DNA from: a virus
Taxonomy: Duplodnaviria > Heunggongvirae > Uroviricota > Caudoviricetes
IMG/VR virus record: IMGVR_UViG_2917398303_000005
Location: 1 to 29,279 of that record
Strand: one strand, 5' to 3'
Length of the DNA: 29,279 bases
The translations under genes were made by a program, and so were the position numbers. Positions 1 to 29,279 of the stretch are shown piece after piece. Numbering within the stretch: the stretch's first letter is position 1; the number at the start of each line of letters is the position of its first letter. The notes under the pieces are model-generated. The model was not told the origin of the DNA. It did no database searches and saw only the letters and a program-made list of their open reading frames with translations.

Positions 1-17
1 ACGCAATTTCAATAAAT

Positions 18-1222: not shown

Positions 1223-1246
1223 TGCGACACCGAGGCTAAAAGAGAG

Positions 1247-1585: not shown

Positions 1586-1611
1586 AAATTCCCTTACCGA
1601 GGCTAATATTT

Positions 1612-2016
1612 TTACTGAATGTTCTTTGTCGTGGCTAAGTGGGTATTAGAGCTAATAGTCACTTTGGATTGTTCCGGTTGCTCTTGACCAGCTTTATCGC
1701 AAGTAGCTCTCGGATTCTCAAGCGCATACCCCATGAAACTAAATTTATTGAGGATTTGAACCGCTTTAGTAGTTTTTAGGTATGCCGTATTTTCTTTATG
1801 TAGCCATACTGGATAGCAAACACCATATACAGCAGTATCATAAATTTCAGGTGTGACCGTTGGCGTATCCAGAACAACAGTAATCACACCCTTACTATCT
1901 TTTATCGATAAAGGCTGCATATCATTCAACGACTTTTTAAGCACAGACAAATTGGATGGCTGAGCATGTACAGCAAAAGAAGTGAGTAACACAAGAGCAA
2001 AAATTGAACGTTTCAT
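1612..2016 (-). CDS. small secreted protein (signal peptide), moron between int and cI
   Basis: 134-aa ORF with N-terminal MKRSIFALVLLTSFAVHAQP signal peptide. AT-rich, and tightly packed between cI (stop 2025) and the next ORF. Confidence 0.6.
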   Translation of the reverse strand: MKRSIFALVLLTSFAVHAQPSNLSVLKKSLNDMQPLSIKDSKGVITVVLDTPTVTPEIYDTAVYGVCYPVWLHKENTAYLKTTKAVQILNKFSFMGYALENPRATCDKAGQEQPEQSKVTISSNTHLATTKNIQ

Positions 2017-2024
2017 AAGTTCCC

Positions 2025-2867: not shown

Positions 2868-2980
2868 TTATCAATCACTCAAAATCGATTTACACGAACT
2901 CATTTTCGATCTAAAGTGGCATTCATCGACCAAGATGCACACCACTGCACCACATTTCAAACAACAGGAGATAATGCGAT
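2868..2980. promoter_or_regulatory. lysis-lysogeny switch region (operators and face-to-face early/lysogenic promoters expected)
   Basis: 113-bp gap between divergent cI and the cox/apl-like gene. Candidate rightward sigma70 promoter: -35 TTTACA at 2889-2894, 17-bp spacer, -10 TAAAGT at 2912-2917. Palindrome AAATCGATTT at 2882-2891. RBS AGGAG at 2966-2970. Promoter positions are eyeballed, not scored. Confidence 0.45.
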
Positions 2981-3352
2981 ATGTCAGATGCAAAATCAAT
3001 CTCGACGCATGATTCGCAAAACTCACAAAATCAAACTGTGCTGTTAGATCCGGCTCAGTTTGATGCCATCGTTACCGCTATGCTGCCAGCTCTGCAGACA
3101 ATGATCCGCTCCGCTATGTCAGACACAATGACAGTGAAAGACTTTGCCGCCACTCGCGGTGTAAGCGAGCGTCTGGTCTGGCAATGGCTTGATGAGGGAA
3201 TCCTCCTCAAAGCCCCAACTAAAGACTTTTCCAACAAGGAAGAGGCTGGAAAACGAAGCCGCACCCTCGTAAACGTGAAAGCATGGCGCGACAAACTAAC
3301 CCAGCAAGCGATTGATTGTCGCTACATCGACCACCGCATCGCTCTTAACTGA
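2981..3352 (+). CDS. Cox/Apl-like excisionase-regulator (HTH)
   Basis: 123-aa ORF with a strong RBS. First gene of the rightward early operon, with an HTH-like segment MTVKDFAATRGVSERLVWQWLDEG. Position matches 186 apl / P2 cox. An internal in-frame ATG at 3080 would give a 90-aa product closer to Apl in size. Confidence 0.6.
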   Translation: MSDAKSISTHDSQNSQNQTVLLDPAQFDAIVTAMLPALQTMIRSAMSDTMTVKDFAATRGVSERLVWQWLDEGILLKAPTKDFSNKEEAGKRSRTLVNVKAWRDKLTQQAIDCRYIDHRIALN

Positions 3353-3384
3353 ATTTGATTATGCAAGTTAGAGGGAATTTAACC

Positions 3385-3894
3385 ATGTTTGATTTTCAGA
3401 TTTCTAAACATCCTCACTATGACGAAGCGTGCCGGGCTTTTGCGCAGCGTCACAACATGGCGAAGCTGGCCGAGCGTGCGGGTATGAACGTTCAAACGTT
3501 ACGTAACAAGCTCAACCCGGAACAGCCTCACCAATTCACACCGCCTGAATTGTGGCTGCTGACTGACCTGACCGAAGACTCAACCCTCGTTGATGGCTTT
3601 CTGGCGCAGATTCATTGTCTGCCATGCGTGCCGGTTAATGAGCTGGCTAAAGAGAAATTGCAGTCTTATGTGATGCGCGCAATGAGTGAACTCGGCGAAC
3701 TGGCGAGCGGTGCGGTATCAAATGAACGTATGACCTCTGACCGCAAACACAGCATGGTTGAGAGTGTTAATGCAGGCATCCGCATGTTGTCTCTGTCGGC
3801 GCTGGCGTTACAGGCGCGTCTACAGGCTAACCCGGCAATGTCGAGCGTGGTTGATACCATGACCGGCATCGGCGCAACATTTGGTTTGGTATGA
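3385..3894 (+). CDS. cII: phage 186-type CII transcriptional activator (CP76 family)
   Basis: 169 aa from ATG 3385, with RBS GAGGGAA 8 nt upstream. Begins MFDFQISKHPHYDEACRAFAQRHNMAKLAERAGMNVQTLRNKLNPEQPHQF, which matches my recollection of 186 CII almost residue for residue. Confidence 0.8.
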   Translation: MFDFQISKHPHYDEACRAFAQRHNMAKLAERAGMNVQTLRNKLNPEQPHQFTPPELWLLTDLTEDSTLVDGFLAQIHCLPCVPVNELAKEKLQSYVMRAMSELGELASGAVSNERMTSDRKHSMVESVNAGIRMLSLSALALQARLQANPAMSSVVDTMTGIGATFGLV

Positions 3895-3901
3895 GGTGTT
3901 T

Positions 3902-4126
3902 ATGCAGGAAAATGAACCCTCATTCGCATCTCTGCTCGTTAAGCAAAGTCCAGGTATGCATTACGGTCACGGCTGGATCGCGGGTAAAGATGGTAAGCGC
4001 TGGCACCCGTGCCACTCTCAGTCCGAATTATTAAAAGGGCTGAAATCTAAGCAGTCGAAGTCGTCAGGCTTTTTAATTATTCGTATTGTCCACTTTATTA
4101 TTAAAGGGATTAAGCATGTCACGTGA
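3902..4126 (+). CDS. hypothetical early protein (186 fil/dhr position)
   Basis: In-operon ORF, ATG 3902 with RBS TGAGGTG upstream. 74 aa. No motif recognised. Confidence 0.5.
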   Translation: MQENEPSFASLLVKQSPGMHYGHGWIAGKDGKRWHPCHSQSELLKGLKSKQSKSSGFLIIRIVHFIIKGIKHVT

Positions 4127-4316
4127 TGAATTAAGAATTGTTTTAGGAGCCATGATTCCGAATATGGAAGACGGTTTTGAAATTAAAACCCGCGATGGTG
4201 CAATACTTCGCGTTGACCCTGAGTGGGAGTGCTGCAAAGAGTTTAAGGATGGCCTGAAAGCTGAGATTATCAGCCAGTTAAAAAGTAAACCTGCCGTTGT
4301 ATTTGGCTATAGCTAA
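4116..4316 (+). CDS. hypothetical early protein
   Basis: 66 aa from ATG 4116 with RBS AAAGGGA upstream. Overlaps the previous ORF's end, consistent with translational coupling. Confidence 0.5.
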   Translation: MSRDELRIVLGAMIPNMEDGFEIKTRDGAILRVDPEWECCKEFKDGLKAEIISQLKSKPAVVFGYS

Positions 4317-4385
4317 TTAATCACAATTAATTATCTGGCGTAAACCCGCCGGGCATTTTATTGCCCAAAATCAGGAGAGTTAGTT

Positions 4386-4613
4386 ATGCGTAATACCGAA
4401 TCCCGTAGTTTTAATACTGATAGTGATACTCTGGCCGTGCTGCTGACAGATGCCAAAAAAGAAGAACGCAAAGACCGCGCACTCGCCGTTTCAATCCGTC
4501 TTGAGGCGCTGGCTATCCATATCACTAAAGAGGGCATGAACGGCACCGAAGCCGCTGAACTGCTGCGACGTGAAGCCAACCGCTACGAAAACGAATCACA
4601 GGAGCTGCACTAA
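4386..4613 (+). CDS. hypothetical early protein (DUF2732-like, by recollection)
   Basis: 75-aa ORF with RBS AGGAGAG at 4373-4379. Its stop overlaps the next start (ATGA at 4610-4613). Confidence 0.55.
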   Translation: MRNTESRSFNTDSDTLAVLLTDAKKEERKDRALAVSIRLEALAIHITKEGMNGTEAAELLRREANRYENESQELH

Positions 4614-4834
4614 TGGCCGACGCAATGGATTTAGCACAACTGCGCGAGCAGGAAGACCGCGAACGCCACATCAGCAACGCGCGCTGCCGTATTGCAGCGA
4701 CCTCTCCTTTCCTATGCGAAGAATGTGACGCACCAATCAAGGAAGCCCGCCGTGCGGCAATTCAGGGGGTGGCATTTTGCGTGACTTGTCAGCAAATCGC
4801 CGAGCTCAAATCAAAACACTACAGGGGCGTGTAA
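4613..4834 (+). CDS. TraR/DksA-family C4 zinc-finger protein
   Basis: 73 aa with CEECDAPIKEARRAAIQGVAFCVTCQQ, a CxxC-N17-CxxC finger typical of phage TraR/DksA-like proteins found before gene A in P2-like phages. Confidence 0.75.
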   Translation: MADAMDLAQLREQEDRERHISNARCRIAATSPFLCEECDAPIKEARRAAIQGVAFCVTCQQIAELKSKHYRGV

Positions 4835-5239
4835 ATGAGTTTTCGAATCGAAATAGGTGACAAATGGATTATTACTAGCGACCAGTATCAATTTATCCTT
4901 AATGAAAAGAAAGTCGCTCAATCTGGGAAAAAATCTGGCGAGGAATGGCTTGATGCCATCGGATATTACCCAAAAATTGAACAACTTATTTCAGGATTAA
5001 TTCACCGTCATATTCAGAATTCGACCATAACTTCACTTAAAGAGATGGTCGTAGAAATAGAAAAAATGGGCGTATTATTCGCCAATGCTATTGAGAAAAT
5101 GCTCGGTCAATATACTCCTGACTTAAAAATACTGAGTCGTAATCTTTCAGACCCATTCCGTAATCCGAGGCATCTACTAGACCCAGAGAGCGGAGAAATT
5201 CACACGCTGCGGCGTACTCTCCCAATCCATCACAGGTGA
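4835..5239 (+). CDS. hypothetical protein in AT-rich island
   Basis: 134-aa ORF translationally coupled to the previous gene (TAA ATG at 4832-4837, RBS AGGGG upstream). The N-terminal ~85 aa look protein-like; the C-terminal part overlaps a convergent ORF. Confidence 0.5.
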   Translation: MSFRIEIGDKWIITSDQYQFILNEKKVAQSGKKSGEEWLDAIGYYPKIEQLISGLIHRHIQNSTITSLKEMVVEIEKMGVLFANAIEKMLGQYTPDLKILSRNLSDPFRNPRHLLDPESGEIHTLRRTLPIHHR

Positions 5240-5390
5240 GAGCCCTGTAAAAAACATTCTCATTGCAGACAAGGATTTTATATGGAACTCCAGGAATGGA
5301 TTCCTGCTGATTCTCAAACCACGCAGACAGGGCCGAATCATATGGCGGCAGATTCAAACTGTCTTTCATCTTGAATAATTTATGTTGCAT
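5088..5390 (-). CDS. hypothetical protein, convergent and overlapping the previous ORF
   Basis: About 100 aa from ATG 5390 (or GTG 5393), with RBS AAGGTG about 6 nt upstream on the minus strand. The acidic, globular-looking sequence (…KILVCNENVFYRALTCDGLGEYAAACEFLRSLGLVD…) reads more like a real protein than its antisense partner. Confidence 0.4.
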   Translation of the reverse strand: MQHKLFKMKDSLNLPPYDSALSAWFENQQESIPGVPYKILVCNENVFYRALTCDGLGEYAAACEFLRSLGLVDASDYGMGLKDYDSVFLSQEYIDRAFSQ

Positions 5391-5436
5391 CACAGCACCT
5401 TTTTAACACTCAACTTTGTGGGAGGCTACACGACCA

Positions 5437-7710
5437 ATGTTATGGAATCAAAAAGAAAGTCGACAGATGATACATGACGGAGGGGCATTAGATATTACTT
5501 TTGCTTATCCGTGGAATGCTCCACGGTCGGCTATAGCCAGCCCATACCTTACTTACGAGCATCAGCATCGCCGCGACCGTATGTTCGCGGCTTTGCTGCA
5601 TGCGAAAAAGGTGCTTTCTCTCCAGCCCGACTGCGTGCGGTTAGATGTTTATCGCACTGCGGCAGTGCTGGAGCAAAATCAGGGCATTCAACGAGCCAAT
5701 GCCTTTTTGATCAGCTTCTGCAAAAAGGCATTGCCGCGTCTTGAATTGGTCGCAAAAAAATACGAATGCGCGGGCATCAACAGCAAGGTATCAACCTCTG
5801 TTTTTGGAAGTCATTTTGATACCCAGCTTATGCAATATCTGGCCTCACGCATGGTTAATATGGTCGCCCGATATAACCGCCTCCCGGATATGTCGCGCGC
5901 TGATGTTGACCTGTTGGCCGCCGATATTGCTAATTTCATTCGTGGTGAACTTGCCAACATTAATGACCACGGATTCGGCGAGCTTAAAACGCTGTACACC
6001 TGGTATAATCGTGCTGGCTTTATTTCCCTCCAGTTCAACGTTATCCCACCCCATTGGGATCGGGTTGCAAAAAAATATGTCGGCGCGGATGAAATCGCAC
6101 CGGCTATCGCCAAGATGTTTAACGATGGGTGGTGGCGTGGTCGTTTGCGCCGGGTTGCAGCTACATGGCGCGAACACCTGCAAATTGCAGTCGGCAACGT
6201 CAGCAAGAAAAAAAACACCTATGCGAGTAAAAACTGCGTGACTGACTGGCGTGAACAAAAGCGCCGAACTCGTGAATTTCTCAAAGGTCTGGATCTCGAA
6301 GACGAAGACGGCAACCGTATCAGCCTGATTGAAAAATATGATGGCTCAGTTGCTAACCCTGCGATTCGCCGCTGTGAGCTCATGACTCGCATCCGTGGGT
6401 TTGAAAACATCTGTAATGAGCTCGGTTATGTCGGTGAGTTTTACACTCTGACCGCGCCGTCGAAATATCACGCCACGACTAAAGCCGGTTACCGTAACAG
6501 CAAATGGAGCGGTGCCAGCCCGGCTGACACGCAAAACTATCTAACCGGTATCTGGGCGCGTATCCGTGCCAAACTGCATCGGGAAGATGTCCGTATTTTC
6601 GGTATTCGTGTCGCCGAGCCCCATCACGACGGTACTCCACACTGGCACATGCTGATGTTCATGCTGCCGGAAGATGTTGAATATGTTCGCTCCATCGTAC
6701 GTAAATACGCGTGGAAAGAAGACCGCCGCGAACTGAAAAGCGATAAGGCCAAAAAAGCACGTTTCCACGCCGAGTCCATTGACCCGGAGAAAGGCAGCGC
6801 AACCGGCTATGTTGCTAAATACATCTCAAAAAATATCGACGGTTATGCTCTCGATGGTGAAACCGATGATGAAAGTGGTGAACTGCTGAAAGAGACAGCC
6901 CCCGCCGTTTCAGCATGGGCTTCGCGCTGGCACATCCGTCAGTTTCAGTTTATCGGTGGTGCGCCGGTGACGGTTTACCGTGAGTTGCGTCGCCTCGCTG
7001 ATACCGAAACCGCGCACGGACTGAGCGTTGAGTTTGCCGCCGTCCATGATGCCGCCGACGCTGGTGACTGGGCTGGGTATGTTAATGCGCAGGGTGGACC
7101 GTTTGTCCGTCGCGATGATTTACAGGTGCGCACACTGTATGAACCGCGTACCGAGCTTAATCAGTACGGTGAGGAAACGGTATGTATTAAGGGGGTCTAC
7201 GATTCCTCCATAGGTGCAGGGAGCCCGATATTAACCCGACTCACTCAGTGGAAGATTGTTCCGAAGCATGCTGTTGATTTGGCCGTTGACCTTCAGGACG
7301 GCAAAGCCGTCCCTCGGAGTTCTGTCAATAACTGTACGGGAAGCGAAAACGATCCACCGGTACTGGATTTGACAAAGCCCCTGAGTCGACGCGAAAGACG
7401 AGAGCTAACCAACCGACTCAGGAAGCAAAAGCCAGCAGCATGGCGAAAATTCATACACGGAACGGAGGAGCAAAACGCAGCTATAGCGAAAACTATCGAA
7501 GAGATACATCTGACAACCGGCATTAATATCAGCCGGGGCGAAGCTCTGCACTTGATGGCCGGTGGTAAAAGTTGTTTTGATGGTAAATGGCTACGCGGAA
7601 CGGCCAAAGGAGAAATATTTTCCACAGCACCATCGCATGAGGCTAAAGCCAGGAAAATCCTTAATCGTGTTGCTGCGATAGCTGAAGCATCAAAACCAAT
7701 ATCAGACTAA
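5437..7710 (+). CDS. A: replication initiation protein A (rolling-circle HUH endonuclease, P2 gpA-like)
   Basis: About 757 aa from ATG 5437 with RBS GGAGG at 5421-5425. HUH motif TPHWHMLMF and active-site tyrosine motif GYVAKYISKNIDG. Size and position match P2 gpA. Confidence 0.9.
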   Translation: MLWNQKESRQMIHDGGALDITFAYPWNAPRSAIASPYLTYEHQHRRDRMFAALLHAKKVLSLQPDCVRLDVYRTAAVLEQNQGIQRANAFLISFCKKALPRLELVAKKYECAGINSKVSTSVFGSHFDTQLMQYLASRMVNMVARYNRLPDMSRADVDLLAADIANFIRGELANINDHGFGELKTLYTWYNRAGFISLQFNVIPPHWDRVAKKYVGADEIAPAIAKMFNDGWWRGRLRRVAATWREHLQIAVGNVSKKKNTYASKNCVTDWREQKRRTREFLKGLDLEDEDGNRISLIEKYDGSVANPAIRRCELMTRIRGFENICNELGYVGEFYTLTAPSKYHATTKAGYRNSKWSGASPADTQNYLTGIWARIRAKLHREDVRIFGIRVAEPHHDGTPHWHMLMFMLPEDVEYVRSIVRKYAWKEDRRELKSDKAKKARFHAESIDPEKGSATGYVAKYISKNIDGYALDGETDDESGELLKETAPAVSAWASRWHIRQFQFIGGAPVTVYRELRRLADTETAHGLSVEFAAVHDAADAGDWAGYVNAQGGPFVRRDDLQVRTLYEPRTELNQYGEETVCIKGVYDSSIGAGSPILTRLTQWKIVPKHAVDLAVDLQDGKAVPRSSVNNCTGSENDPPVLDLTKPLSRRERRELTNRLRKQKPAAWRKFIHGTEEQNAAIAKTIEEIHLTTGINISRGEALHLMAGGKSCFDGKWLRGTAKGEIFSTAPSHEAKARKILNRVAAIAEASKPISD

Positions 7711-7784
7711 TTTATATCCATATCATGTACATACGACAATCGCCCTATTCGTTTTTTTTCTTCCCATCTTTTACCAATACGTGC

Positions 7785-7804
7785 TACTGTATAAACATAC
7801 AGTA
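7785..7804. promoter_or_regulatory. LexA operator (SOS box) overlapping a candidate promoter
   Basis: TACTGTATAAACATACAGTA is a near-perfect match to the CTGT-N8-ACAG consensus TACTGTATATATATACAGTA. It lies about 20 bp upstream of the RBS/ATG at 7824. A -10-like TATAAA sits inside the box. Confidence 0.75.
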
Positions 7805-7823
7805 ACCCTGTAGGAGGGATTCC

Positions 7824-8006
7824 ATGGTTGACGAACATTTCAGCCGAACGCAGCAAAAGTGGGCTTGTGTGCAATTTATTGCCGAGGTATCTCTGATTGC
7901 AAACTGCAAGCCATCAGACTTAAAGCTCGCGCTCACTCTCATTGCAGACCTAGCAAACAGCGAGAATAACGAAACCGAAGATGATAATTTTTATAAGGCT
8001 GATTAG
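7824..8006 (+). CDS. small SOS-regulated ORF (possible Tum-like antirepressor N-terminal part)
   Basis: 60-aa ORF with RBS AGGAGGG at 7812-7818, directly downstream of the LexA box. It ends at an amber TAG (8004-8006) and is in the same frame as the next ORF. Confidence 0.55.
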   Translation: MVDEHFSRTQQKWACVQFIAEVSLIANCKPSDLKLALTLIADLANSENNETEDDNFYKAD

Positions 8007-8009
8007 ATT

Positions 8010-8240
8010 ATGAGAATCAATATCACGTTGGATAAAGAACAAAAATTAGGGCAACAGATCATTGATGCTTTTCAGAATGAAATAACACATCGAGTACAAT
8101 GCGTTTTTCCTGCAATAAAAGTTAACGTCAAGAAAGGGTCAATGACTAGTGTAGAGGTTATCGGATTCGATAAAGAAGCAGACAAAGAAACATTAAGCGG
8201 CATATTACAAGAGATTTGGGAAGACGATAGCTGGCGTTAA
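8010..8240 (+). CDS. DinI-family protein (DinI-like / Tum C-terminal-like)
   Basis: 76 aa: MRINITLDKEQKLGQQIIDAFQNEITHRVQCVFP…ETLSGILQEIWEDDSWR. This parallels E. coli DinI (MRIEVTIAK…ISEILQETWESADDW) as I recall it. SOS-controlled through the upstream LexA box. Confidence 0.8.
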   Translation: MRINITLDKEQKLGQQIIDAFQNEITHRVQCVFPAIKVNVKKGSMTSVEVIGFDKEADKETLSGILQEIWEDDSWR

Positions 8241-8258
8241 ACATGATAACCGTGTTGG

Positions 8259-8315
8259 CGCAAAAACTAGCTTTTTGCGTCGACGGGGTTGAGTAACGAG
8301 CCCACGAGGCTTTAG
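8259..8315. repeat. repeat unit copy 1: 8-bp-stem hairpin plus conserved 34-mer
   Basis: Hairpin cgcaaaaa/ctagc/tttttgcg at 8259-8279, followed by GACGGGGTTGAGTAACGAGCCCACGAGGCTTTAG at 8282-8315. Matches copy 2 at 8686-8720 at roughly 85% identity by eye. Confidence 0.55.
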
Positions 8316-8439
8316 TCCGGCCTTTCAAAATTTCTCAATGTGCTATTGATGACACGCCAGTGATGAATGAGGCATGACCTGAGAGGGTTTTATAGTGGCG
8401 TTTTGACGGCACTGATTAAAATTCATTGAGGGTGATAAT

Positions 8440-8649
8440 ATGCATCGACTACCAGGTGAAATACCGCAGCACCAGACCAGAAATATTAAGTTAATGGCTA
8501 TCGTTCATCGCCTGCAGCAGATAATGGTCAATGAGAATTTGACACCCGCCGAGCTGGTCGGGTGCGCCGAAATAGTCAGGGATAATTGCGGCAAGCTGGA
8601 TAGCATCAGCAGACCGACAAAATACGCACCTCCACCACGTCGACGATAG
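8440..8649 (+). CDS. hypothetical small protein bracketed by the two repeat units
   Basis: 69-aa ORF with RBS GAGGGTG about 7 nt before ATG 8440. Arg/Pro-rich C-terminus. No recognisable motif. Confidence 0.4.
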   Translation: MHRLPGEIPQHQTRNIKLMAIVHRLQQIMVNENLTPAELVGCAEIVRDNCGKLDSISRPTKYAPPPRRR

Positions 8650-8659
8650 CAAACGTCGT

Positions 8660-8720
8660 CAGCGCTGAAACTCGCTTTCAGTGCTGACGGGGTTGAACAA
8701 CGAGCCCCGCGAGGCGTTAG
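8660..8720. repeat. repeat unit copy 2: 11-bp-stem hairpin plus conserved 35-mer
   Basis: Hairpin cagcgctgaaa/ctcgc/tttcagtgctg at 8660-8686, followed by GACGGGGTTGAACAACGAGCCCCGCGAGGCGTTAG at 8686-8720. It lies between convergent orf69 and orf143 and overlaps the orf143 stop. Confidence 0.55.
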
Positions 8721-9148
8721 CTGGTTACCAGATTGACACCGAGGGTAAGCAGGTTTGTCACCGCACCGGCAATCACTCCCGGCGTCCCGTCTTTCACTGC
8801 ACTGATAATCTTATCGCCCATTGTTTCATTACCGCCGAGCGCCTCGGGCTTTTTGTTAAGCACGGCGAGTGCTTTCTCGGTCAGGCGCACATCATAAAAA
8901 TAGGTCTGGTGGTCTGTTCCGTACTGGATGTAGCCGTTTTCACTGAGAAAAGTGAATGTACCCTCAACCACACTACGCAACTGATTCAGTGCGTTCATTT
9001 CTGGTGAGTTAAGTTGTTCAAAGTAGTCATCAGGTAGCGCGGCGTTAAATTTTTCGTAAGTAATGACCTGTGGCACCGGGAAGTTATCCCATAACACCGC
9101 AAAAACTTCCGCCGTCTGCTGGTTAAATAATTCGAGGTTTTTGGACAT
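8717..9148 (-). CDS. hypothetical accessory protein, reverse-oriented cargo gene at the P2 tin/old position
   Basis: 143-aa ORF with RBS AAGGGA about 8 nt upstream on the minus strand. Soluble-looking N-terminal ~110 aa plus a Gly-rich hydrophobic C-terminal tail (GTPGVIAGAVTNLLTLGVNLV). Opposite in orientation to the flanking genes. Confidence 0.6.
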   Translation of the reverse strand: MSKNLELFNQQTAEVFAVLWDNFPVPQVITYEKFNAALPDDYFEQLNSPEMNALNQLRSVVEGTFTFLSENGYIQYGTDHQTYFYDVRLTEKALAVLNKKPEALGGNETMGDKIISAVKDGTPGVIAGAVTNLLTLGVNLVTS

Positions 9149-9206
9149 GCATAATTCCCTTTCATCGATAGACCCGTTTGCCGATTGGGCAAAAAAGCTG
9201 ACTGTA

Positions 9207-9338
9207 ATGGCATCGAATAACGACCTGAGTTCTCGCGAGGTGGAAAGCTACACCGCAAAAATGGTCGACCAAGCCAGTAAAGATGAGCTTACGGTCGTTA
9301 TAAAACACCTGTTAAACCACATCAGAATGCACAAATAA
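9207..9338 (+). CDS. possible small ORF divergent from orf143
   Basis: In-frame ATGs at 9147 and 9207 within the 9063-9338 ORF; no convincing RBS. The 9147 start would overlap the orf143 start codon back to back. Protein from 9207: MASNNDLSSREVESYTAKMVDQASKDELTVVIKHLLNHIRMHK. Confidence 0.3.
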   Translation: MASNNDLSSREVESYTAKMVDQASKDELTVVIKHLLNHIRMHK

Positions 9339-9664
9339 AAGGATCTATATCAATATGTTATCTCTCGTTTATGAAAATCCGTGGACGACGATTTTTCTGC
9401 TGATTGTTGCCAGTATGTGCCTCAATAGTGTTATTGGCGCATTGCGCGGCCAGTAATCGCGACAAAACCAGACCCAAACCGGCACCCTGAATGCCGGTTT
9501 TTTTATGCCATTTTCCCGCGATTTCCCCGTTTTTTAGCCGTGCATGCAACAGGTGCATGGTTTTGCATGCGTCGGGGTTGCCCGTTCTGGTCGTGCGCCG
9601 CCAGTGCTGGCGCGGATTCAGAGTGGTCATGCAACTGCATTAAAACCGACCCATAAAGCGGGCA

Positions 9665-9683
9665 GGCGTGGCGGGGAAAGCAT
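9665..9683. other. cos site, 19-nt cohesive-end sequence (186-type)
   Basis: GGCGTGGCGGGGAAAGCAT matches my recollection of the phage 186 cohesive end (P2: GGCGAGGCGGGGAAAGCAC). It is where cos is expected, between the accessory locus and portal gene Q. Confidence 0.55.
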
Positions 9684-9822
9684 TGCGCGCCAGCGGTGGT
9701 GCGTAATAATAAAAATTATCCTCTGAGCGCGTCGTGATGGCGCTGTAGTGGATGCTGTCGGCTCGTTGGTGGTCTGGTGTGGCCGTGCGCGTGTGGTGCG
9801 TCTGAGGAGTGATGATAGCGGG

Positions 9823-9849
9823 GTATGAAAAAGCCGCCATGCTGGCGGC
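9823..9849 (-). terminator. intrinsic terminator after Q (minus strand)
   Basis: Perfect 7-bp GC-rich stem gccgcca/tgc/tggcggc at 9833-9849, followed on the minus strand by UUUUU (plus-strand A-run 9828-9832), right after the Q stop at 9860-9862. Confidence 0.6.
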
Positions 9850-9859
9850 TTGAGGGGGA

Positions 9860-10906
9860 TTATTCCGGGTTGTCTAGGGTGTACTCTTTGAATCTGATGA
9901 CCTCCATGCCGAGCCAGTCGTTTACCTCCCTGAACCTGTCCTGCAGGGGTGACAGCTCATTACGAACGAATACCTTTGCTACCTTCTCAACGTCACCGAG
10001 TGAACCGATATTCTCGGGCTTGCCGCCCATGAGCTGGAACGGTACGCGGTGCGCGTCCATCAGGTCGGCGGCACTGGCTTTCTTGATGTTGAAAAAGTCA
10101 TCCTTTGTGGCTACCTCGCTTAGTGGCACGATTTTGATGCCGTCCGGTTTTCCACCAGGAGCGTAGAAAAACAGGTTCTTAAAGTTGCCGAGCCCTTTTG
10201 AGTTGCGCATCGCCTCGCGCAGCGATTCGACGTCGGTCGCGCTCTGTGCCGGGTCGGTCACATACATGATGTAACCTGCATGCGCGCCGTTCTGGTAATA
10301 CTTGCGGCGGAACAGTGTCGCGGATTCATTCAGCCAGGCGGAATTAAGCGCGCTGAGATATTCGGGCAGACCGTAAATCTCCTGATTAATATCGGGCTCC
10401 AGCAGGTGAAACACGGTATTAGGGGCGAACTCGTGAGGCTGAGTGAAGTTTTCCACAAACCAGAAAATCGAATCGTCGACCCCGCGGCGGGTGTATTTGG
10501 CCGGTGAAGCCAGTAGCTTGATTAACCGGCCGGTGACGCTGTGGCGCTGCTCAAGAAAGGCGTTGCCGAATACCAGATAGTCGAGCGCAAAGCGGCTGAA
10601 ATCCTGACGTGACAGAAGCGGGTGTGGAATGTAGGTGCTCGCGAGCACGTTGCGTTTAACGTAAATCGGCGAGCTGTGATGTACGGCAGAGCGAAGGCTC
10701 TTTGCCAGTCCGGAAAAGCTGACCGGCGGCTCGTACCATTTGCCGTTACTGATGCACTCAACGTAATCCAAAATATCGCGCTTATCGAGTACCGGCACAG
10801 GCTCACCGAAGGTGAACGCTGTCGTTTTTGGTGGTGCGCTGGCGGTTAGTTGTTGTGGCTTGCTGGCCTTCTGCGCAGCGGCTTTACGGGATTTTTGTTT
10901 ACCCAT
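9860..10906 (-). CDS. Q: portal protein (P2 gpQ-like)
   Basis: 348 aa. MGKQKSRKAAAQKASKPQQLTASAPPKTTAFTFGEPVPVLDKRDILDYVEC… closely parallels P2 gpQ in sequence and size. Adjacent to cos and co-oriented with terminase. Confidence 0.9.
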   Translation of the reverse strand: MGKQKSRKAAAQKASKPQQLTASAPPKTTAFTFGEPVPVLDKRDILDYVECISNGKWYEPPVSFSGLAKSLRSAVHHSSPIYVKRNVLASTYIPHPLLSRQDFSRFALDYLVFGNAFLEQRHSVTGRLIKLLASPAKYTRRGVDDSIFWFVENFTQPHEFAPNTVFHLLEPDINQEIYGLPEYLSALNSAWLNESATLFRRKYYQNGAHAGYIMYVTDPAQSATDVESLREAMRNSKGLGNFKNLFFYAPGGKPDGIKIVPLSEVATKDDFFNIKKASAADLMDAHRVPFQLMGGKPENIGSLGDVEKVAKVFVRNELSPLQDRFREVNDWLGMEVIRFKEYTLDNPE

Positions 10907-10907
10907 T

Positions 10908-12676
10908 TTAGTTGAACTCCAGAATAGATTTAGGCTGCATGCCGCTACCGGCGGAAAGTGGTTCGTTTAACAGGGCGTGCATGGTCGCCCATGCGATATC
11001 GGCGTGACTGGCTTCCTCGGTGCGACTGGCCTCATAGGTGGCGCTGCGCCCGCTGCTGGTCATGGTTTTGCGGATGGACATAAACGACTGCGTGACGTCG
11101 GTCGCCCCGGCGTCATACTCCAGACAGCCACGGCGAATAGTGTCTTTTGCCTTGAGCACCATCGCGGTTTTCATTTCAGGCGTGTAACGGATGCCGCGTG
11201 CCGCCGGGTAGAATGAGCGCACCAACTGGAAAACGCCGAGGCCGAGCCGGTTGCGTCAATGCCGATGTATTCGACGTTGTATTTCTCGGTCAGCTTGCGG
11301 ATGCCCTCAGCCTGCGCGGCAAAGTCCATGCCTTTCCACTGATGACGCTCCAGCATGCGGAACTTGCCACCCGAGACCACCGGCGGCGCGAGCACGACGC
11401 ACCCGGCACAGTCGCCAGTATGTGACGGGTCGTAGCCAATCCAGACCGGGCGTGAGCCGAAAGGATGGTCGGCGAACGGGGCAAAGTCCTCCCATTCTTC
11501 CATCACGTCGACCATGCAGCGCTGTAGTTCCTCGAACGGGAATACCGACGCTTTATCGTCGACAAACTCGCACATAAACAGGTTTTTAAAGTCCTCATCA
11601 CTGTTTTCGCGTTTGAGCTGGTCGAGGTCGAACAGGGTACAGCCACCGGCAAGGGCGTCCTCAATGGTGACAATCTGCCGCCACTGTCCATCGTCGCAGA
11701 GCTGACCACCGGCGAGCGCGTTGTGACTGATGTCGATTTCGATGCGGTCTGCAATACGGCTGCGCCCCTTGTTGAACAGCTCACCAGACCAGAAGGGGTA
11801 AGCGCCGTGCGCCAGCGTGGACGGTGTCGAACAGTAGGTTGAGCGCAGGTGCTTCTGCGAGGCCATGCCCGACGCGACTTTGCGCAGCTTCTGAAAATTC
11901 GGGATCCAGAATATTTCATCGACATACAGGTCGCCGTTATGGCTCTGCGCGGTGTTGGAATTGGTACCGAGAAAAATCAGCTTTGCGCCGTTGTTGCCGA
12001 TGACAATCGGGTCGCCGGTCAGGTCGACGTCGACCAGCCGCGCAAACTGGATGATGTACTCGCGGAACACGTAAGCCTGCGTTTTACTGGCCGACAAAAA
12101 TATCTGGTTGTGGCCGGTCTTGAGCGCGCGCAGCAGCGCCTCGCGGGAGAAATAGAACGTCGCGCCAATCTGGCGGGATTTGAGAATATCGCGAATACGG
12201 TGCGCCAGCCCTGCGCGGTACCACTGCAACTGGTACTCGAAAGACTGGTCGAAAAATAGTTCCTCCAGTTTCTCGATAGCCTCGTCGCTGAAAAAGTTCT
12301 TTTTCGGCTTTTTACGCTCGCCTTTGTTGCGGTTGGCGACATTGGGGTTTAGGTCGACCTCGTTGCCGGTCTGGCTGTAGCGGTTAACGCGCGCCAGTCG
12401 CTCAATCTGCCGCCCGAGCAGGTCAATTTCTTTGAAATCGCCGCCTGACTTTTGCGGCTTGGCGATGAGATGAATCAGGCGCGCCTCAAGGCTGCTTTCG
12501 ACGCGGGAAATCGGTGCGATACCGTCCCAGCCGTCGCGCTGCTTCCAGCTCTGCACGGTCGGGCGCTTGACCTGCAGCATTTCGGCAATCTGTGGCACGG
12601 AAAAGCCCTGCCAGTAAAGCAGCGATGCCTGCCGTCGCGGGTCATGCAACAAGGTTGTATCGGTGGAAATGGTCAT
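10908..12676 (-). pseudogene. P: terminase large (ATPase) subunit, P2 gpP-like, interrupted by a 1-nt frameshift near 11240-11250 (or a sequencing error)
   Basis: A 501-aa ORF (11171-12676) and a 105-aa ORF (10908-11225, VRSFYPAARGIRYTPEMKTAMVLKAKD…) are in different frames and together give about 589 aa (P2 gpP is about 590 aa). After …YIGIDATG the first frame turns into an unconvincing SASAFSSWCAHSTRRHAASVTRLK tail, while the second reads LGLGVFQLVRSFYP…. Confidence 0.7.
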
Positions 12677-12841: not shown

Positions 12842-13696
12842 ATGGCAAAAAAAGTCTCAAAATTCTTTCGCATCGGCGTCGAGGGTGACACCTGCGACGG
12901 CCGCATTATCAGCGGTAACGATATTCAGGAAATGGCCGAATCGTTTGACCCTCGTGTCTACGGTTGCCGCATTAACCTTGAACATATTCGCGGTCTCTTC
13001 CCCGATGGTGACTTCAAACGTTTAGGCGATGTGGTTGAGCTGAAAGCCGAGAAAATTGACGACGATTCTGCGCTTAACGGCAAATGGGCGTTGTTCGCCA
13101 GAATCACCCCGACCGATGACCTGATTGCGATGAATAAAAAATTGCAGAAGGTCTACACCTCAATGGAAATTCAGCCGAATTTTGCCAATACCGGCAAATG
13201 CTACCTCGTCGGCCTTGCGGTCACCGATGACCCGGCGAGCCTCGGCACTGAATACCTCGAATTCTGCCGCAACGCGAAGCACAACCCGCTGCAGCGCTTT
13301 AAGGCCAACCCTGAAAACGTCTTTTCCGCCGCCACGCTGGCCGAGCTGGAATTTGAAGACGTTCCCGACACGGTGCTCAACAGCCTGGCCGATAAGGTGA
13401 AAGCCATTTTCAGCCGTAAGCAGGTCAGCGACGATGCGCGCCTGAATGATGTGCATGAAGCGGTGACCACCGTCAGCGAACATGTGCAGACCAACCTGAC
13501 AAAACAGGACGAGCGCCTTTCCGCTATGGAAACCGCGTTTGCCTCCTTCAAACAGGAGCTGACCGGCAAGGTTGACGAAACCAGCCAGGCATTTTCCGCC
13601 CTGAAAGCCACCCTCGACAAAACAGAAAGTTTCAGCCAGCCGCGACGCACGAAAGCCAGCGGCGGTGGTGGCGATGAGCTGCTGACTGACTGCTGA
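12842..13696 (+). CDS. O: capsid scaffolding protein (P2 gpO-like)
   Basis: 284 aa. MAKKVSKFFRIGVEGDTCDGRIISG…TGKCYLVGLAVTDDPASLGTEYLEF… is collinear with P2 gpO. Confidence 0.9.
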   Translation: MAKKVSKFFRIGVEGDTCDGRIISGNDIQEMAESFDPRVYGCRINLEHIRGLFPDGDFKRLGDVVELKAEKIDDDSALNGKWALFARITPTDDLIAMNKKLQKVYTSMEIQPNFANTGKCYLVGLAVTDDPASLGTEYLEFCRNAKHNPLQRFKANPENVFSAATLAELEFEDVPDTVLNSLADKVKAIFSRKQVSDDARLNDVHEAVTTVSEHVQTNLTKQDERLSAMETAFASFKQELTGKVDETSQAFSALKATLDKTESFSQPRRTKASGGGGDELLTDC

Positions 13697-17592: not shown

Positions 17593-17737
17593 CCCGAAAA
17601 CCAATGGCGACCTGAGCGCGGATATCCGCCGTCTTGAGGGCGCGCTGACCGCCTGCGCGCTGCAGGTCAAAACCGTCAAACACTGTCAGGATGAACTCGA
17701 TGCAGAAGCACAAAAGCCTGCGCAAAGCGCTGATTAA
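17447..17737 (+). CDS. lysC: o-spanin lipoprotein (Rz1-like, P2 lysC-like), overlapping lysB in another frame
   Basis: MKMKPFAAGITLLCLTLCVGC: signal peptide with a lipobox-like LCVGC, then a Pro-rich stretch PAPPAPVPV. It starts inside lysB and runs past its stop, the P2 lysB/lysC arrangement. Confidence 0.65.
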   Translation: MKMKPFAAGITLLCLTLCVGCTPAPPAPVPVIVVNGCPRVSLCPMPGSDPKTNGDLSADIRRLEGALTACALQVKTVKHCQDELDAEAQKPAQSAD

Positions 17738-18167
17738 CGCCGTGCCGCAGCTCAGGAATAACCCCGATATGCTGCGCCTGTTTGCTGACAACGGCCATAC
17801 CGATTCCCGGCTGGCGAGCTCGCTGTCGTTCGAAAAGGTGTATGTGCTTAACGTGGTGGTGACCGACTTCACCGGCGACCTCGATTTGATATTCGTGCCA
17901 GTGCAGGCGTGGCTGCGTGAACATCAGCCGGACATTATGACCACCAACGACGGGCGTGAGAAAGGATTCACCTGGATGATTGATATCAATAACGACGATT
18001 CGCTCGATATCAGTATCAGCCTGAGACTCACCGAGCGCACGCTCGTCAAAGAGGTCGACGGTGCGCTGCATGTCAGCTATGCCCCTGAACCGCCGCTGCC
18101 AGAGCCGGTGGCGCGCCCGGTCGGGCTGTACGTTAACGGCGAACTGGTGAGTAAGTGGGATGAGTGA
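17700..18167 (+). CDS. R: tail completion protein R (P2 gpR-like)
   Basis: 155 aa from ATG 17700 (in frame with the ORF-track start 17691). …NPDMLRLFADNG…SLSFEKVYVLNVVVTDFTGDLDLIFVPVQAWLREHQPDIMTT… matches P2 gpR. Confidence 0.8.
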   Translation: MQKHKSLRKALINAVPQLRNNPDMLRLFADNGHTDSRLASSLSFEKVYVLNVVVTDFTGDLDLIFVPVQAWLREHQPDIMTTNDGREKGFTWMIDINNDDSLDISISLRLTERTLVKEVDGALHVSYAPEPPLPEPVARPVGLYVNGELVSKWDE

Positions 18168-18609
18168 GTTAACCGCACTGCAGGAACGTCTTGCCGGTCT
18201 GATTGCCAGCCTGTCACCGGCGGCGCGTCGGCAAATGGCGGCTGAGATTGCGAAAAAGTTGCGTACCAGTCAGCAACAGCGCATCAAGCGCCAGCAGGCA
18301 CCCGACGGCACCCCGTATGCGGCACGAAAGCGCCAGCCGGTGCGGAGCAAGAAAGGTCGGATTAAACGTGAAATGTTCGCCAAACTGCGCACCAGTCGCT
18401 TTATGAAAGCCAAAGGCAGCGACAGTGCGGCGGTGGTGGAGTTTACCGGCAAGGTGCAGCGCATGGCGCGGGTGCATCAGTACGGGCTCAAAGACAGACC
18501 AAACCGCAACAGCCGGGATGTGCAGTACGAGGCGCGCCCGTTACTCGGTTTCACCCGCGACGATGAGCAGATGATTGAAGACGTCATTATCAGGCACCTC
18601 GGCAAATAA
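18160..18609 (+). CDS. S: tail completion / virion morphogenesis protein S (P2 gpS-like)
   Basis: 149 aa, synteny R-S-V; P2 gpS is about 150 aa. Confidence 0.85.
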   Translation: MSELTALQERLAGLIASLSPAARRQMAAEIAKKLRTSQQQRIKRQQAPDGTPYAARKRQPVRSKKGRIKREMFAKLRTSRFMKAKGSDSAAVVEFTGKVQRMARVHQYGLKDRPNRNSRDVQYEARPLLGFTRDDEQMIEDVIIRHLGK

Positions 18610-18677
18610 ATATTGTGTGAACCACCACCGGAGCCGCGCGAATTGGCGCGACTCCAGACCAGAGGCATCCTTGCACT

Positions 18678-19313
18678 ATGAATACGTTATCCACGATACA
18701 GGAGCTCGCGCGCGCGATTCGCAACCTCATCCGCTCAGGTGTGGTGACTGAGGTTGATACCGTGCAGGGGCTGTGCCGCGTACAAAGCGGCGGGATCCAG
18801 ACTACATGGCTGAACTGGCTGACCACCCGCGCCGGTCGTTCGCGGACTTGGTGGGCTCCCTCGGTCGGTGAGCAGGTTCTGCTGCTGGCAATCGGTGGCG
18901 AGCTCGATACTGCTTTCGTGCTGCCGGGTATTTTCTCCGACGATAACCCCGCCCCGTCTGCCTCGGCGGATGCGTGGCATGTGGTTTTCCCTGATGGTGC
19001 GGTCATTGAGTACGAACCCGAGACCGGCGCGCTGACGGTCAGCGGCATCAAAACTGCCGACGTGACGGCATCGAAGTCCATCACCGCAACCGTGCCGCTG
19101 GTACTGGTGAAAGCCTCGACCAGTATCACCCTCGACACCCCTGAGGTGATTTGCACCAATAAGCTGACGACGGCGACGCTTGAGGTGCAAAAGGGCGGCA
19201 CGATGAAAGGCAATGTCGAACATTCCGGCGGGTCACTGTCGTCTAATGGCAAGGTACTCCACCTCCATAAACACCCCGGCGACAGCGGCGGGACAACGGG
19301 TGCGCCGATATGA
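18678..19313 (+). CDS. V: baseplate spike/assembly protein V (P2 gpV-like)
   Basis: 211 aa, the same size as P2 gpV, in conserved position. Confidence 0.85.
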   Translation: MNTLSTIQELARAIRNLIRSGVVTEVDTVQGLCRVQSGGIQTTWLNWLTTRAGRSRTWWAPSVGEQVLLLAIGGELDTAFVLPGIFSDDNPAPSASADAWHVVFPDGAVIEYEPETGALTVSGIKTADVTASKSITATVPLVLVKASTSITLDTPEVICTNKLTTATLEVQKGGTMKGNVEHSGGSLSSNGKVLHLHKHPGDSGGTTGAPI

Positions 19314-19657
19314 CAGCGCGTTATCAGGGTATGAACCGAAATACCGGCCTCGGCATCAGCGATACCGAGCATATCAGCCAGAGCATGCGCGACATTCTGC
19401 TGACGCCGGTCGGCTCGCGGGTGATGCGTCGTGAATATGGCTCGCTTCTGTCGGCGCTGATTGATATGCCGCAAAACCCGGCGCTCAGGCTGCAAATTAT
19501 GGTGGCGTGCTATTCGGCTATCCAGAAGTGGGAGCCGCGCATCAGGCTTACCGCCATCAGCTTTGAGACCGGCGACGCTGGCGAGATGTATGTCGATATT
19601 ACCGGGATACGCACTGATACAGGTGCGTCAGTTTCAACCACTGTTTCACTGAGTTAA
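19310..19657 (+). CDS. W: baseplate protein W (P2 gpW-like)
   Basis: 115 aa, matching P2 gpW in size. Start overlaps the V stop (ATGA). Confidence 0.85.
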   Translation: MTARYQGMNRNTGLGISDTEHISQSMRDILLTPVGSRVMRREYGSLLSALIDMPQNPALRLQIMVACYSAIQKWEPRIRLTAISFETGDAGEMYVDITGIRTDTGASVSTTVSLS

Positions 19658-19663
19658 ATCACT

Positions 19664-20572
19664 ATGGCAACCGTTGACCTGAGTCAGTTACCCGTTCCCG
19701 ACGTGGTTGAGGAACTGGACTATGAAACCATCCTTGCGGAACGCATCGCGACGCTGATTTCGCTTTATCCCGAAGACCAGCAGGAGGCCATTGCCCGGAC
19801 GCTCGCTCTTGAGTCAGAGCCGATTGTTAAGCTGTTGCAGGAAAACGCCTACCGTGAAGTTATCTGGCGTCAGCGGGTGAACGAAGCCGCGCAGGCGGTG
19901 ACGCTGGCCTACTCCGCCGGTAACGACCTCGACGTCGTAGCCGGAAACAATAATACCGAACGCCTGACCATCACCCCGGTGGATGACACCACCATCCCGC
20001 CGACACCTGCCGTTATGGAGTCTGATACCGACCTGCGACTGCGCACGCAACAGGCATTTGAGGGATTGAGCGTGGCGGGTCCGGTCGGTGCATATGAGTA
20101 TCACGGTCGCAGCGCCGACGGGCGGGTCGCTGACGTTTCGGTCGCCAGCCCGTCGCCAGCCTGCGTGACGATTACCGTGCTATCGCGTGAGGGTGACGGC
20201 ACTGCCAGCCCTGAGCTACTGGCGATTGTTGATAAAGCTCTGAACGCCGAAGATGTGCGCCCGGTGGCTGACCGGGTGACCGTCCAGTCAGCCGAGATTG
20301 TGCCGTACCAGATTGACGCGACGATCTACGTTTACCCCGGCCCCGAATCTGAACCCATCAGGCAGGCGTCAGAGCAGAAGCTGCAGAGCTACATCAGCGC
20401 GCAGCACCGCCTCGGGCGAGATATTCGCCTGTCAGCCATTTATGCAGCGCTGCATGTTGAGGGAGTGCAGCGTGTCGAACTGGCATCACCACAGGCCGAC
20501 ATTGTGCTGAGTAAGTCGCAGGCGTCGAACTGCACCGAGTACCAGATAACTACCGGGGGCTCGGATGAGTGA
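19664..20572 (+). CDS. J: baseplate protein J (P2 gpJ-like)
   Basis: 302 aa, matching P2 gpJ in size. Synteny W-J-I. Confidence 0.85.
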   Translation: MATVDLSQLPVPDVVEELDYETILAERIATLISLYPEDQQEAIARTLALESEPIVKLLQENAYREVIWRQRVNEAAQAVTLAYSAGNDLDVVAGNNNTERLTITPVDDTTIPPTPAVMESDTDLRLRTQQAFEGLSVAGPVGAYEYHGRSADGRVADVSVASPSPACVTITVLSREGDGTASPELLAIVDKALNAEDVRPVADRVTVQSAEIVPYQIDATIYVYPGPESEPIRQASEQKLQSYISAQHRLGRDIRLSAIYAALHVEGVQRVELASPQADIVLSKSQASNCTEYQITTGGSDE

Positions 20573-21173
20573 TCGGCTGTTACCCGTTGGCTCGTCGCCG
20601 CTGGAAGTTGCCGCCGCTGCTGCACTCTCTGAGATTCAGCGCGTGCCGGTACCGTTGCGCACCCTGTGGAACTGGCGTACTTGCCCGGTAAACCTGCTGC
20701 CGTATCTGGCGTGGGCGCTATCGGTCGACAGGTGGGATGAGAAGTGGCCGGAGGCGACAAAGCGCAGCGTCTGCGCGTCCTCGTTTTTCGTCCATCAGCA
20801 CAAAGGCACCATCAGCGCATTGCGTCGGGTCGTCGAGCCGCTCGGCTTTCTGATTGAAGTGCGCGAGTGGTGGCAACTCGACGAGGAGCCAGGCACATTC
20901 CGCCTCGTTGTTGGCGTACTCGACAGCGGCATCACTGACGAAATGTATCAGGAGCTTGAGCGCCTGATTGAAGACGCCAAACCGGCAAGTCGCCACCTGA
21001 CCGGGCTGGCTATCAGTCTGAGCTCGACCGGCGAACTGTATGTCGGCGCGGGATGCTATCACGGCGAAGCGCTGACTGTTTACCCCTACACCCCCGAGGA
21101 GATTGTCGTCGGCGGTGAATATTACCCGGCCTCGGCCATCCATTTGATTGATAACCTGAGAGTGAACGCATGA
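20565..21173 (+). CDS. I: baseplate/tail protein I (P2 gpI-like)
   Basis: 202 aa. Overlaps J and H at both ends, as typical. Confidence 0.85.
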   Translation: MSDRLLPVGSSPLEVAAAAALSEIQRVPVPLRTLWNWRTCPVNLLPYLAWALSVDRWDEKWPEATKRSVCASSFFVHQHKGTISALRRVVEPLGFLIEVREWWQLDEEPGTFRLVVGVLDSGITDEMYQELERLIEDAKPASRHLTGLAISLSSTGELYVGAGCYHGEALTVYPYTPEEIVVGGEYYPASAIHLIDNLRVNA

Positions 21174-22782: not shown

Positions 22783-22786
22783 TGCA

Positions 22787-24625: not shown

Positions 24626-24632
24626 ATCCCTG

Positions 24633-27626: not shown

Positions 27627-28112
27627 ATGATGCTTGCTCTCGGAATGTTTGTGTTTGAACTTCGCACCCTACCTTATCAGTCGATGCAACACTCGAAAGA
27701 TTACCGCTGGGTATCTAATGACCGGGTCGGTAAGCCGCCTGCGTATCAGTTTCTTGGTGAGGGGGAAACATCTCGCCAGCTTGCCGGTACGCTTTACCCT
27801 GCAATTACCGGCGGTTGGATCTCCCTCAAGGCTGTCGAGGTGATGGCTAACGAGGGCAGAGCATGGCCGCTGATAGAGGGAACCGGCAACATTCTCGGGA
27901 TGTATATCGTCGACAGAGTATCGACCACGCACACTGAGTTTTTCAGCGACGGTGCAGCCAGAAAGATTGATTTCACTCTTTCGCTTAAACGGGTCGACGA
28001 ATCACTGACGGCGATGTTTGGCGACCTGAATAAACAGGCCAGTGAGCTTCTCGGCTCTGCCGGAAATGTGGCCGATAAGCTGCAGGGTTCGCTCGGAGGA
28101 CTTACAGCATGA
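27627..28112 (+). CDS. U: tail protein U (P2 gpU-like)
   Basis: 161 aa (P2 gpU is about 159 aa). Its stop overlaps the D start. Confidence 0.85.
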   Translation: MMLALGMFVFELRTLPYQSMQHSKDYRWVSNDRVGKPPAYQFLGEGETSRQLAGTLYPAITGGWISLKAVEVMANEGRAWPLIEGTGNILGMYIVDRVSTTHTEFFSDGAARKIDFTLSLKRVDESLTAMFGDLNKQASELLGSAGNVADKLQGSLGGLTA

Positions 28113-29279
28113 TTACGGGCATGACCATTGACGCCAGTGCCAGCCTTGCACCGGCATTTATGCTGACGCTGAACAGCCAGGACATTACCAGCAATTTTAG
28201 TGACCGGCTGATTTCTCTTTCCATGACCGACAACCGGGGCTTTGAAGCTGACCAGCTCGACATTGAGCTCGACGACTCTGACGGCAAAGTCGAATTACCC
28301 CTGCGCGGGGCAGTGCTGACGTTGTGGCTTGGCTGGCAGGGTTCGGCACTTCTGAATAAGGGTGATTTCACGGTCGATGAGATTGAGCACCGGGGCGCGC
28401 CTGATACCCTGACCATCCGTGCACGCAGTGCAGACTTTCGCGGTTCGCTCAATTCCAGGCGTGAAGAATCATGGCATGACACCACCCTCGACGAACTGGT
28501 CAGCACCATTGCGAAACGCAACAAACTGACGGCCAGCGTAGCGGATGCACTAAAAAAAAATCCCAGTATCGCATATCGACCAGTCGCAGGAGTCCGACTC
28601 GGTATTTCTGACCCGACTGGCTGACCGAAACGGAGCTGCGGTATCAGTGAAAGCGGGGAAACTGCTGTTTATGAAAGCGGGGAGCGCGACGACGGTCAGC
28701 GGTAAGCCAATTCCGCAAATGACGTTGACCCGTAGCGACGGTGACCGTCATCAGTTTGCTATCGCTGACCGTGGGGCTTATACCGGCGTAACCGCTAAAT
28801 GGTTGCACACTAAAGACCCGAAGCCGCAAAAGCAGAAAGTTACGCTGAAACGACAGCCAAAAGAGAAACACCTGCGCGCACTGGAACACCCGAAAGCAAA
28901 GCCGGTCAGCAAAAAGACAAAGGCCAAAAAAGAGCAGGAAGCACGCGAGGGTGAGTACATGACCGGTGAAGCCGATAACGTGCTGGCGCTTACGACGGTC
29001 TACGCATCAAAGGCACAGGCGATGCGCGCCGCTCAGGCTAAGTGGGATAAGCTGCAACGAGGTGTTGCCGAGTTTTCAATTACGCTGGCGCTCGGTCGCG
29101 CTGATTTATTTCCCGAGACGCCAGTGCGCGTATCAGGCTTTAAGCGCGTCATAGACGAGCAATCTTGGTTAATCAGTAAGGTAACTCACAATCTGAATAA
29201 TAATGGCTTCACGACGGGGCTAGAGCTTGAGGTTCAGCTTTCGGAAGTAGAGTACAGTTCAGAGGAAGATAGAGATTGA
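28109..29279 (+). pseudogene. D: tail protein D (P2 gpD-like), frame broken at an A9 homopolymer (28552-28560), or a sequencing error
   Basis: ORFs 28109-28624 and 28647-29279 together give about 390 codons (P2 gpD is about 387 aa). The downstream frame is already open and gpD-like upstream of its ATG (IPVSHIDQSQESDSVFLTRLADRNGAAVSVKAGKLLF…). The frames switch at the A9 run; one A fewer would restore a continuous ORF. Confidence 0.7.

Follow-up and report, generated by a model that had tools for sequence, protein, structure and literature searches.

A large-terminase gene in two reading frames in a 186-like prophage of Escherichia cryptic clade II: probably a base-calling or assembly artefact

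The large-terminase gene and its missing base

Does a prophage whose large-terminase gene is spread over two reading frames really carry a broken terminase, or does the break belong to the deposited sequence and not to the organism? This question is raised by a stretch of 29,279 nucleotides (IMG/VR record IMGVR_UViG_2917398303_000005), the whole of which was analyzed and is called the window hereafter. An earlier note on this DNA, made from its letters alone, had described a terminase gene split into frames of 501 and 105 amino acids, and both frames are indeed present on the minus strand (Table 1). It had also stated that the frames can be joined only by an indel lying between 11171 and about 11257. 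Since the upstream frame ends at a TGA and the downstream frame is itself closed by another TGA (Table 1), the joining indel must fall within positions 11174-11255, in agreement with this estimate.

When the DNA was aligned with that of phages 186, Midge, EtG and GCS667 and of one E. coli prophage, each of them pointed to a single missing base at window position 11246, and a prophage of another strain with 99.97% identity gives the same position. On the plus strand, the sequence GAGGCCGG becomes GAGCCGG or, seen over a longer, G/C-rich distance, CCGAGGCCGG of the relatives becomes CCGAGCCGG in the window (CCGAG-CCGG). In gene orientation, the change is GGCCTC to GGCTC at codon 477 of 589. The suggestion of one base missing near 11240-11250 in a G/C-rich context was thus borne out. 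Using tblastn, the Midge terminase matches the window in two frames with 99-100% identity, residues 1-477 at 12676-11246 and residues 478-589 at 11246-10911, and putting back one G at the lesion yields a protein of 589 residues. The break had been located about 90 codons before the C-terminus; this holds for the premature stop, which lies 88 codons before it, but not for the lesion itself, which lies 112 codons before it. Altogether, the split is a real property of the deposited sequence and no chance pattern. Whether the organism carries it is a separate question.

Table 1. Features of the window discussed in the text (positions are those of the window).
Feature	Position	Strand	Remarks
Portal gene (P2 Q homologue)	9860..10906	-	Intact, directly downstream of the terminase gene; tblastn
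Large-terminase gene (P2 gpP / 186 Orf12 homologue)	10908..12676	-	1770 nt / 589 aa once one base is restored
Upstream 501-aa frame	11171..12676	-	Residues 1-476 authentic, then about 25 out-of-frame residues; stop TGA 11171-11173
Downstream frame with the authentic C-terminal 112 residues	10908..11255	-	Open up to TGA 11256-11258
105-aa ORF within the downstream frame	10908-11225	-	Start TTG 11225
Site of the single missing base	11245..11247		Plus strand GAG-CC against GAGGCC in all relatives (GG to G); DNA alignments
F282C substitution, terminase ATPase domain	11832	-	TYFSTPS to TYCSTPS; derived in the window
Seven substitutions relative to the E4736 copy	3214, 5318, 8148, 11832, 15648, 17190, 29249		
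Tail chaperone E/E'	24689-25024		Slippery T6G 24997-25003; conserved P2-type programmed -1 frameshift, a genuine two-frame gene
Tail/baseplate-hub gene D	28109..29279	+	Split into 171 aa and 210 aa where a homopolymer has gained one base (+1); tblastn, two frames
A9 run in gene D	28552..28560	+	A8 in sister strain E4736 and in the same-reads reassembly; G+A7 in 186 and Midge

To judge from its domains, length, identity and synteny, the repaired gene encodes a standard large terminase of the P2 gpP / 186 Orf12 family. The repaired protein matches the Pfam families Terminase_5 (residues 12-68), Terminase_6N (164-386) and Terminase_6C (413-571), with E-values from 2e-26 to 4e-59, which correspond to the gpP-type HTH, the ATPase and the RNase H-like nuclease, respectively. 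It thus shares with P2 gpP and 186 Orf12 (Peduoviridae; the closest relatives belong to the genus Eganvirus) the length of 589 residues, the three Pfam domains and the gene order, with the portal gene immediately downstream and a divergent scaffold gene upstream (12842-13696, plus strand). The repaired terminase is 99-100% identical to Midge TerL, and the DNA is 96-97% identical to that of Eganvirus phages of Yersinia and Escherichia. By contrast, the window differs from this family by the base missing at codon 477 and by F282C at an otherwise invariant residue, so that the single continuous ORF of about 589-590 residues, a trait of the gpP family, is absent from the sequence as deposited and is obtained only by restoring one base. 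Phages 186, Midge and EtG have in addition a 248-aa terminase-like ORF between the terminase and portal genes, whereas the window, like P2, is without one. This extra ORF (2144-2890 of their loci) has 37% identity to the ATPase region of the terminase.

The break falls directly after the conserved YIGIDATG strand, inside the RNase H-like nuclease domain. Out of the 155 positions of the Terminase_6C profile (Pfam), the 501-aa product retains 1-66, and positions 73-154 are held by the 105-aa frame. From what is established about large terminases, packaging would fail with a product truncated so as to lose most of its nuclease fold and its C-terminus. The opinion of the earlier note that a genuine lesion would abolish DNA packaging is therefore sound, as the break bisects the nuclease domain.

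Relatives with a single frame and the search for the deletion allele

The possibility that intact relatives have the same two-frame structure was not borne out, since they have a single ORF: each of the annotated relatives examined carries one CDS of 1770 nt. The terminase query was covered over at least 80% of its length in all 112 phage records and in 1,549 of 5,426 complete E. coli genomes, 1,573 of which gave any match. Exact and degenerate scans for the deletion allele returned 0 matches in the GTDB species representatives, IMG/VR and the JGI metagenomes; as a positive control, the degenerate pattern of the intact allele was found in 104 IMG/VR stretches. Look-ups of the exact 501-aa product and of the 171-aa fragment of D, aimed at other assemblies with the same lesions, found nothing on record, in agreement with a pseudogene annotation of both genes in the source assembly (PDIB, see below). 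Likewise, a look-up of the 88-aa C-terminal ORF of the terminase turned up no further independent case of the 1-nt deletion. Most of its matches are unrelated prophage remnants; besides these, it recovered the Logan contig from the strain of the window itself and one prophage in which a different deletion, of 4 nt, is present. The latter, from Logan SRR31579166, is 93% identical and has lost GTGT at the equivalent of window positions 11233-11236, 10 nt from the lesion considered here, which gives frames of 500 and 88 residues and the same premature stop as in the window.

The P2/186-like prophage remnants found by means of this 88-aa ORF carry large deletions. Three independent ones share their right end, at TA(C) of GAATACATCGG (window about 11267-11269), 23 nt from the lesion, with S, the tail tube and the sheath as left partners, and three further deletion events end within 12 nt around CCGTTACACG (window 11186-11197). 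The remnant junctions read G(T/A)TAC-A. The three junctions that end at 11269 are absent from the 5,426 complete E. coli genomes, and 80 of the 80 IMG/VR loci examined are intact upstream of window 11269. Breakpoints may recur within the 100 nt surrounding the lesion in P2/186-like remnants, the remnant look-up being itself biased toward this region.

One would also wonder whether the two frames could be functional, either through a programmed -1 ribosomal frameshift or as two separate polypeptides. Such frameshifting is known in this phage family, for a true case, the P2-type tail chaperone gene E/E', lies in the window itself and is, like the terminase, one gene across two overlapping frames; nothing in this is specific to the terminase. 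Unlike the terminase split, E/E' has a slippery T6G and is conserved in all relatives. By inspection of all frames, no slippery heptamer of the form X XXY YYZ occurs in the 82-nt overlap (11174-11255), and the relatives all have one continuous ORF of 1770 nt while being otherwise identical in local sequence. Moreover, the break falls between strands of the RNase H-like fold and divides it. A programmed frameshift or a conserved split terminase was thus rejected on the single ORF of 104 IMG/VR loci and 1,549 E. coli genomes and the lack of a slippery site, and we regard a functional split as extremely improbable.

Source assembly, sister strain and reassemblies

The window is a 186-like prophage (Peduoviridae, Eganvirus-type) extending from the integrase gene (minus strand, 173-1222) as far as the stop codon of D, a tail gene, at 29279, and tblastn with the Midge proteins finds the full gene set in its usual order. 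Positions 1-11222 and 17627-29279 are 100% identical to contig PDIB01000036.1 (GCA_004745285.1) of Escherichia cryptic clade II strain E4694. Exact matches to the portal, gpU and integrase proteins led to this contig, and the portal gene also served to find near-identical prophages. The window stops exactly at the stop codon of D and the source contig continues with the Ogr/B late activator (11729-11947 of the locus), then with host rplS; the window is therefore not the whole prophage. The PDIB record lacks gene calls over both the terminase and D, as would be expected if they had been annotated as pseudogenes. No frameshifts were seen in the flanking host genes over about 19 kb. The E4694 assembly was made from Ion Torrent reads only (single-end, 35-400 nt, 50x) with MIRA and SPAdes (PMC6639607).

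In the sister strain E4736 (PDHX; 100x), sequenced in the same project, this prophage is inserted at the attachment site that it occupies in E4694, between an OmpA-family gene and rplS, and there the terminase of 589 aa and the D of 389 aa are both intact. The two copies differ by 7 substitutions and 2 indels in 29.3 kb. The substitution pattern is one-sided and strand-asymmetric: the window has the derived state in all 6 of the 6 substitutions with outgroup information, and 5 of the 7 are G>A on the plus strand. One of them is F282C; F282 is invariant in E4736, 186, Midge, EtG, GCS667, an E. coli prophage, P2, phiCTX and HP1, an invariance that spans P2-like phages of E. coli, Pseudomonas and Haemophilus. 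Over about 8.8 kb of one flank, the chromosomes of E4694 and E4736 differ by about 101 substitutions, and over about 10 kb of the other flank by 41; the similarity of the two prophages exceeds that of the surrounding chromosome about 50-fold. Because the prophages are so much more alike than their surroundings, this comparison of sequences points to a very recent horizontal spread of an active phage between the two lineages, at a time when its terminase and D would have been working.

A Logan reassembly of run SRR6148338 shows zero substitutions over about 40 kb relative to the window and its host flanks, the host flanks of E4736 differ by about 0.4-1.2%, and only two runs of the accession range of SRR6148338 carry this prophage. 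From these sequence comparisons, SRR6148338 is almost certainly the read set of E4694. Its reassembly contains F282C and keeps the terminase deletion, but has A8, and hence an intact D, where the deposited sequence has A9. It also contains added deletions, at 8303 (CCC to CC), at 12387 (AA to A, inside the terminase gene) and at a host site (GGGAGGCCTT to GGGAGCCTT). In the Logan reassembly of the E4736 run, AAGGCCTCCC has become AAGGCTCCC, on the opposite arm of the same host hairpin. Thus, in both Ion Torrent runs the Logan reassemblies have lost one base of GGCC, in opposite arms of the host pheL/pheA attenuator hairpin, a GC-rich structure of 10 bp (L036 about 17617-17631, L035 about 17617) in which the assemblies of the depositors retain GGCC.

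Overall, pairwise comparison over about 69 kb shows assemblies of the same reads to be discordant at 5 sites, all of them short homopolymers. Exactly the terminase change, GAGGCC to GAGCC (GGCCTC to GGCTC), accounts for 2 of these 5 discordances, although the 29.3-kb window contains only 16 such hexamers. These reads are thus prone to errors in short homopolymers, and the context of the terminase lesion fails elsewhere in them. Per kb, error-type indels in the E4694 reads equal or exceed in frequency the real indels that one would expect alongside 7 substitutions. At the terminase site, the E4736 assembly and its Logan reassembly both read GAGGCC; coming from a different strain, they are an indirect replicate of the E4694 run.

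Similar uncertainty attaches to the second frameshift, in the essential gene D, as one assembly of these reads speaks against it. Removal of one A from the A9 run gives a D of 389 aa. Long homopolymer runs tend to be under-called by Ion Torrent, so that a true A9 in D is also possible. An A-run of this length permits transcriptional slippage, which could partly restore D if A9 were real.

Error or genuine lesion

The earlier note had left two choices, a genuine lesion or an assembly error, and the evidence favors the error over the lesion. We think it probable that the split of the terminase gene is a base-calling or assembly artefact, because the sequence comes from an Ion Torrent draft with a homopolymer frameshift in D, because assemblers disagree over these reads at sites that include GAGGCC to GAGCC and because the sister copy is intact. 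One G of the GG in GAGGCC would have been under-called in most reads of the E4694 run, as a 'high-frequency indel'; the consensus would then lack one base at 11246, the 589-aa gene would show as frames of 501 and 105 residues, and the terminase of the prophage would be intact in the actual organism. Such indels occur about once per 1-2 kb of reference with the Ion Torrent PGM (Bragg et al. 2013, PMC3623719). Their commonest forms are deletions of C/G or insertions of A/T, 82% of the strand-asymmetric ones lie in homopolymers of length 2-3, and they are run-specific and a named cause of assembly frameshifts (PMC3623719). They can be separated from real polymorphism only with a replicate run (PMC3623719). 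The terminase lesion has the same traits, being a single C/G deletion in a 2-mer, absent from the run of the sister strain and resulting in an assembly frameshift, and similar errors are demonstrably present nearby in both runs. The lesion in D, an A insertion in a long A-run, also fits this description.

On the other hand, both assemblers agree at the terminase site, unlike at the other error sites. Since the MIRA/SPAdes and the Logan k-mer assemblies both contain the deletion, it is probably the majority state in the reads. The motif match between the terminase and host errors is suggestive but not conclusive. The host hairpin with the shared motif is stable (-11.9 kcal/mol, z = -5.4); a hairpin as the cause of error at the terminase site finds no such structure there (z = +1.4). 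Because the matching host errors lie in the arms of a hairpin and the terminase error does not, coincidence could account in part for the common motif. We infer that the terminase site probably belongs among the short-homopolymer errors of these reads.

The main alternative is that the E4694 prophage has truly lost this one nucleotide, so that the terminase would be cut after residue 476 in its nuclease domain and cos cleavage and packaging would fail. Supporting this idea, the deletion recurs in an independent reassembly of what are apparently the same reads. That reassembly overturns the D frameshift, so that the terminase lesion is better backed by reads than that of D, and the four other short-homopolymer deletions of the Logan contigs were corrected by the pipeline of the depositors, which recovered the full-length sequence, while the terminase deletion was kept. 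F282C affects an invariant residue of the same gene. All the polarised substitutions are derived in the window copy, which suggests that it has resided for longer or under weaker constraint; in a lysogen, selection does not act on the genes of a silent prophage, and drift in this state would give such a copy. About 0.3-1 real indels would be expected alongside 7 substitutions, and the different frameshift of the SRR31579166 prophage, 10 nt away, indicates that real lesions do arise here. Against a genuine lesion stand the platform and its error profile (Ion Torrent; PMC6639607, PMC3623719) and the fact that the change is of the exact error class, in the very sequence context, that fails elsewhere in these runs. 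In addition, the near-identical sister copy in E4736 is intact, the deletion allele occurs in none of the independent data sets scanned, and the roughly 50-fold greater similarity of prophage than of chromosome implies a phage that was infectious very recently. The agreement of the assemblers counts several-fold for a real lesion, and the match in error class and context counts by a similar or larger factor for the artefact. We therefore hold a genuine deletion to be rather unlikely.

In its fuller form, this alternative describes a 186-like prophage that became defective only recently, perhaps also with a second real hit in D and a damaging F282C, and we regard it as equally unlikely. If real, the frameshift would affect an essential late gene in a 186-like prophage that is complete in other respects, and would resemble the early decay of prophages toward a cryptic or defective state through point lesions in genes of morphogenesis. 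The difference is that the prophage is otherwise fully intact and near-identical to a copy in a chromosomally diverged strain, which argues for very recent activity rather than long decay. That the E4694 prophage was very recently inactivated by up to three hits, namely F282C and the -1 change in the terminase and the +1 change in the A-run of D, seems to us more doubtful still. If true, the prophage would have been caught just as its domestication was beginning, its arrival by infection being so recent that only 7 substitutions separate it from an intact copy in a host whose chromosome is about 1% diverged.

Neither the artefact nor the genuine lesion would be novel, the one being a documented error class of the platform and the other a commonplace point lesion that inactivates a late gene of a prophage, and the terminase split carries very little biological weight. 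If it is an artefact, frameshifts in an Ion Torrent-only draft, such as those of the terminase and D here, are no ground for calling a prophage defective, and the omission of both proteins by PGAP from the PDIB protein set is misleading. If it is real, it would be an ordinary step of early prophage decay in one environmental isolate of Escherichia clade II.
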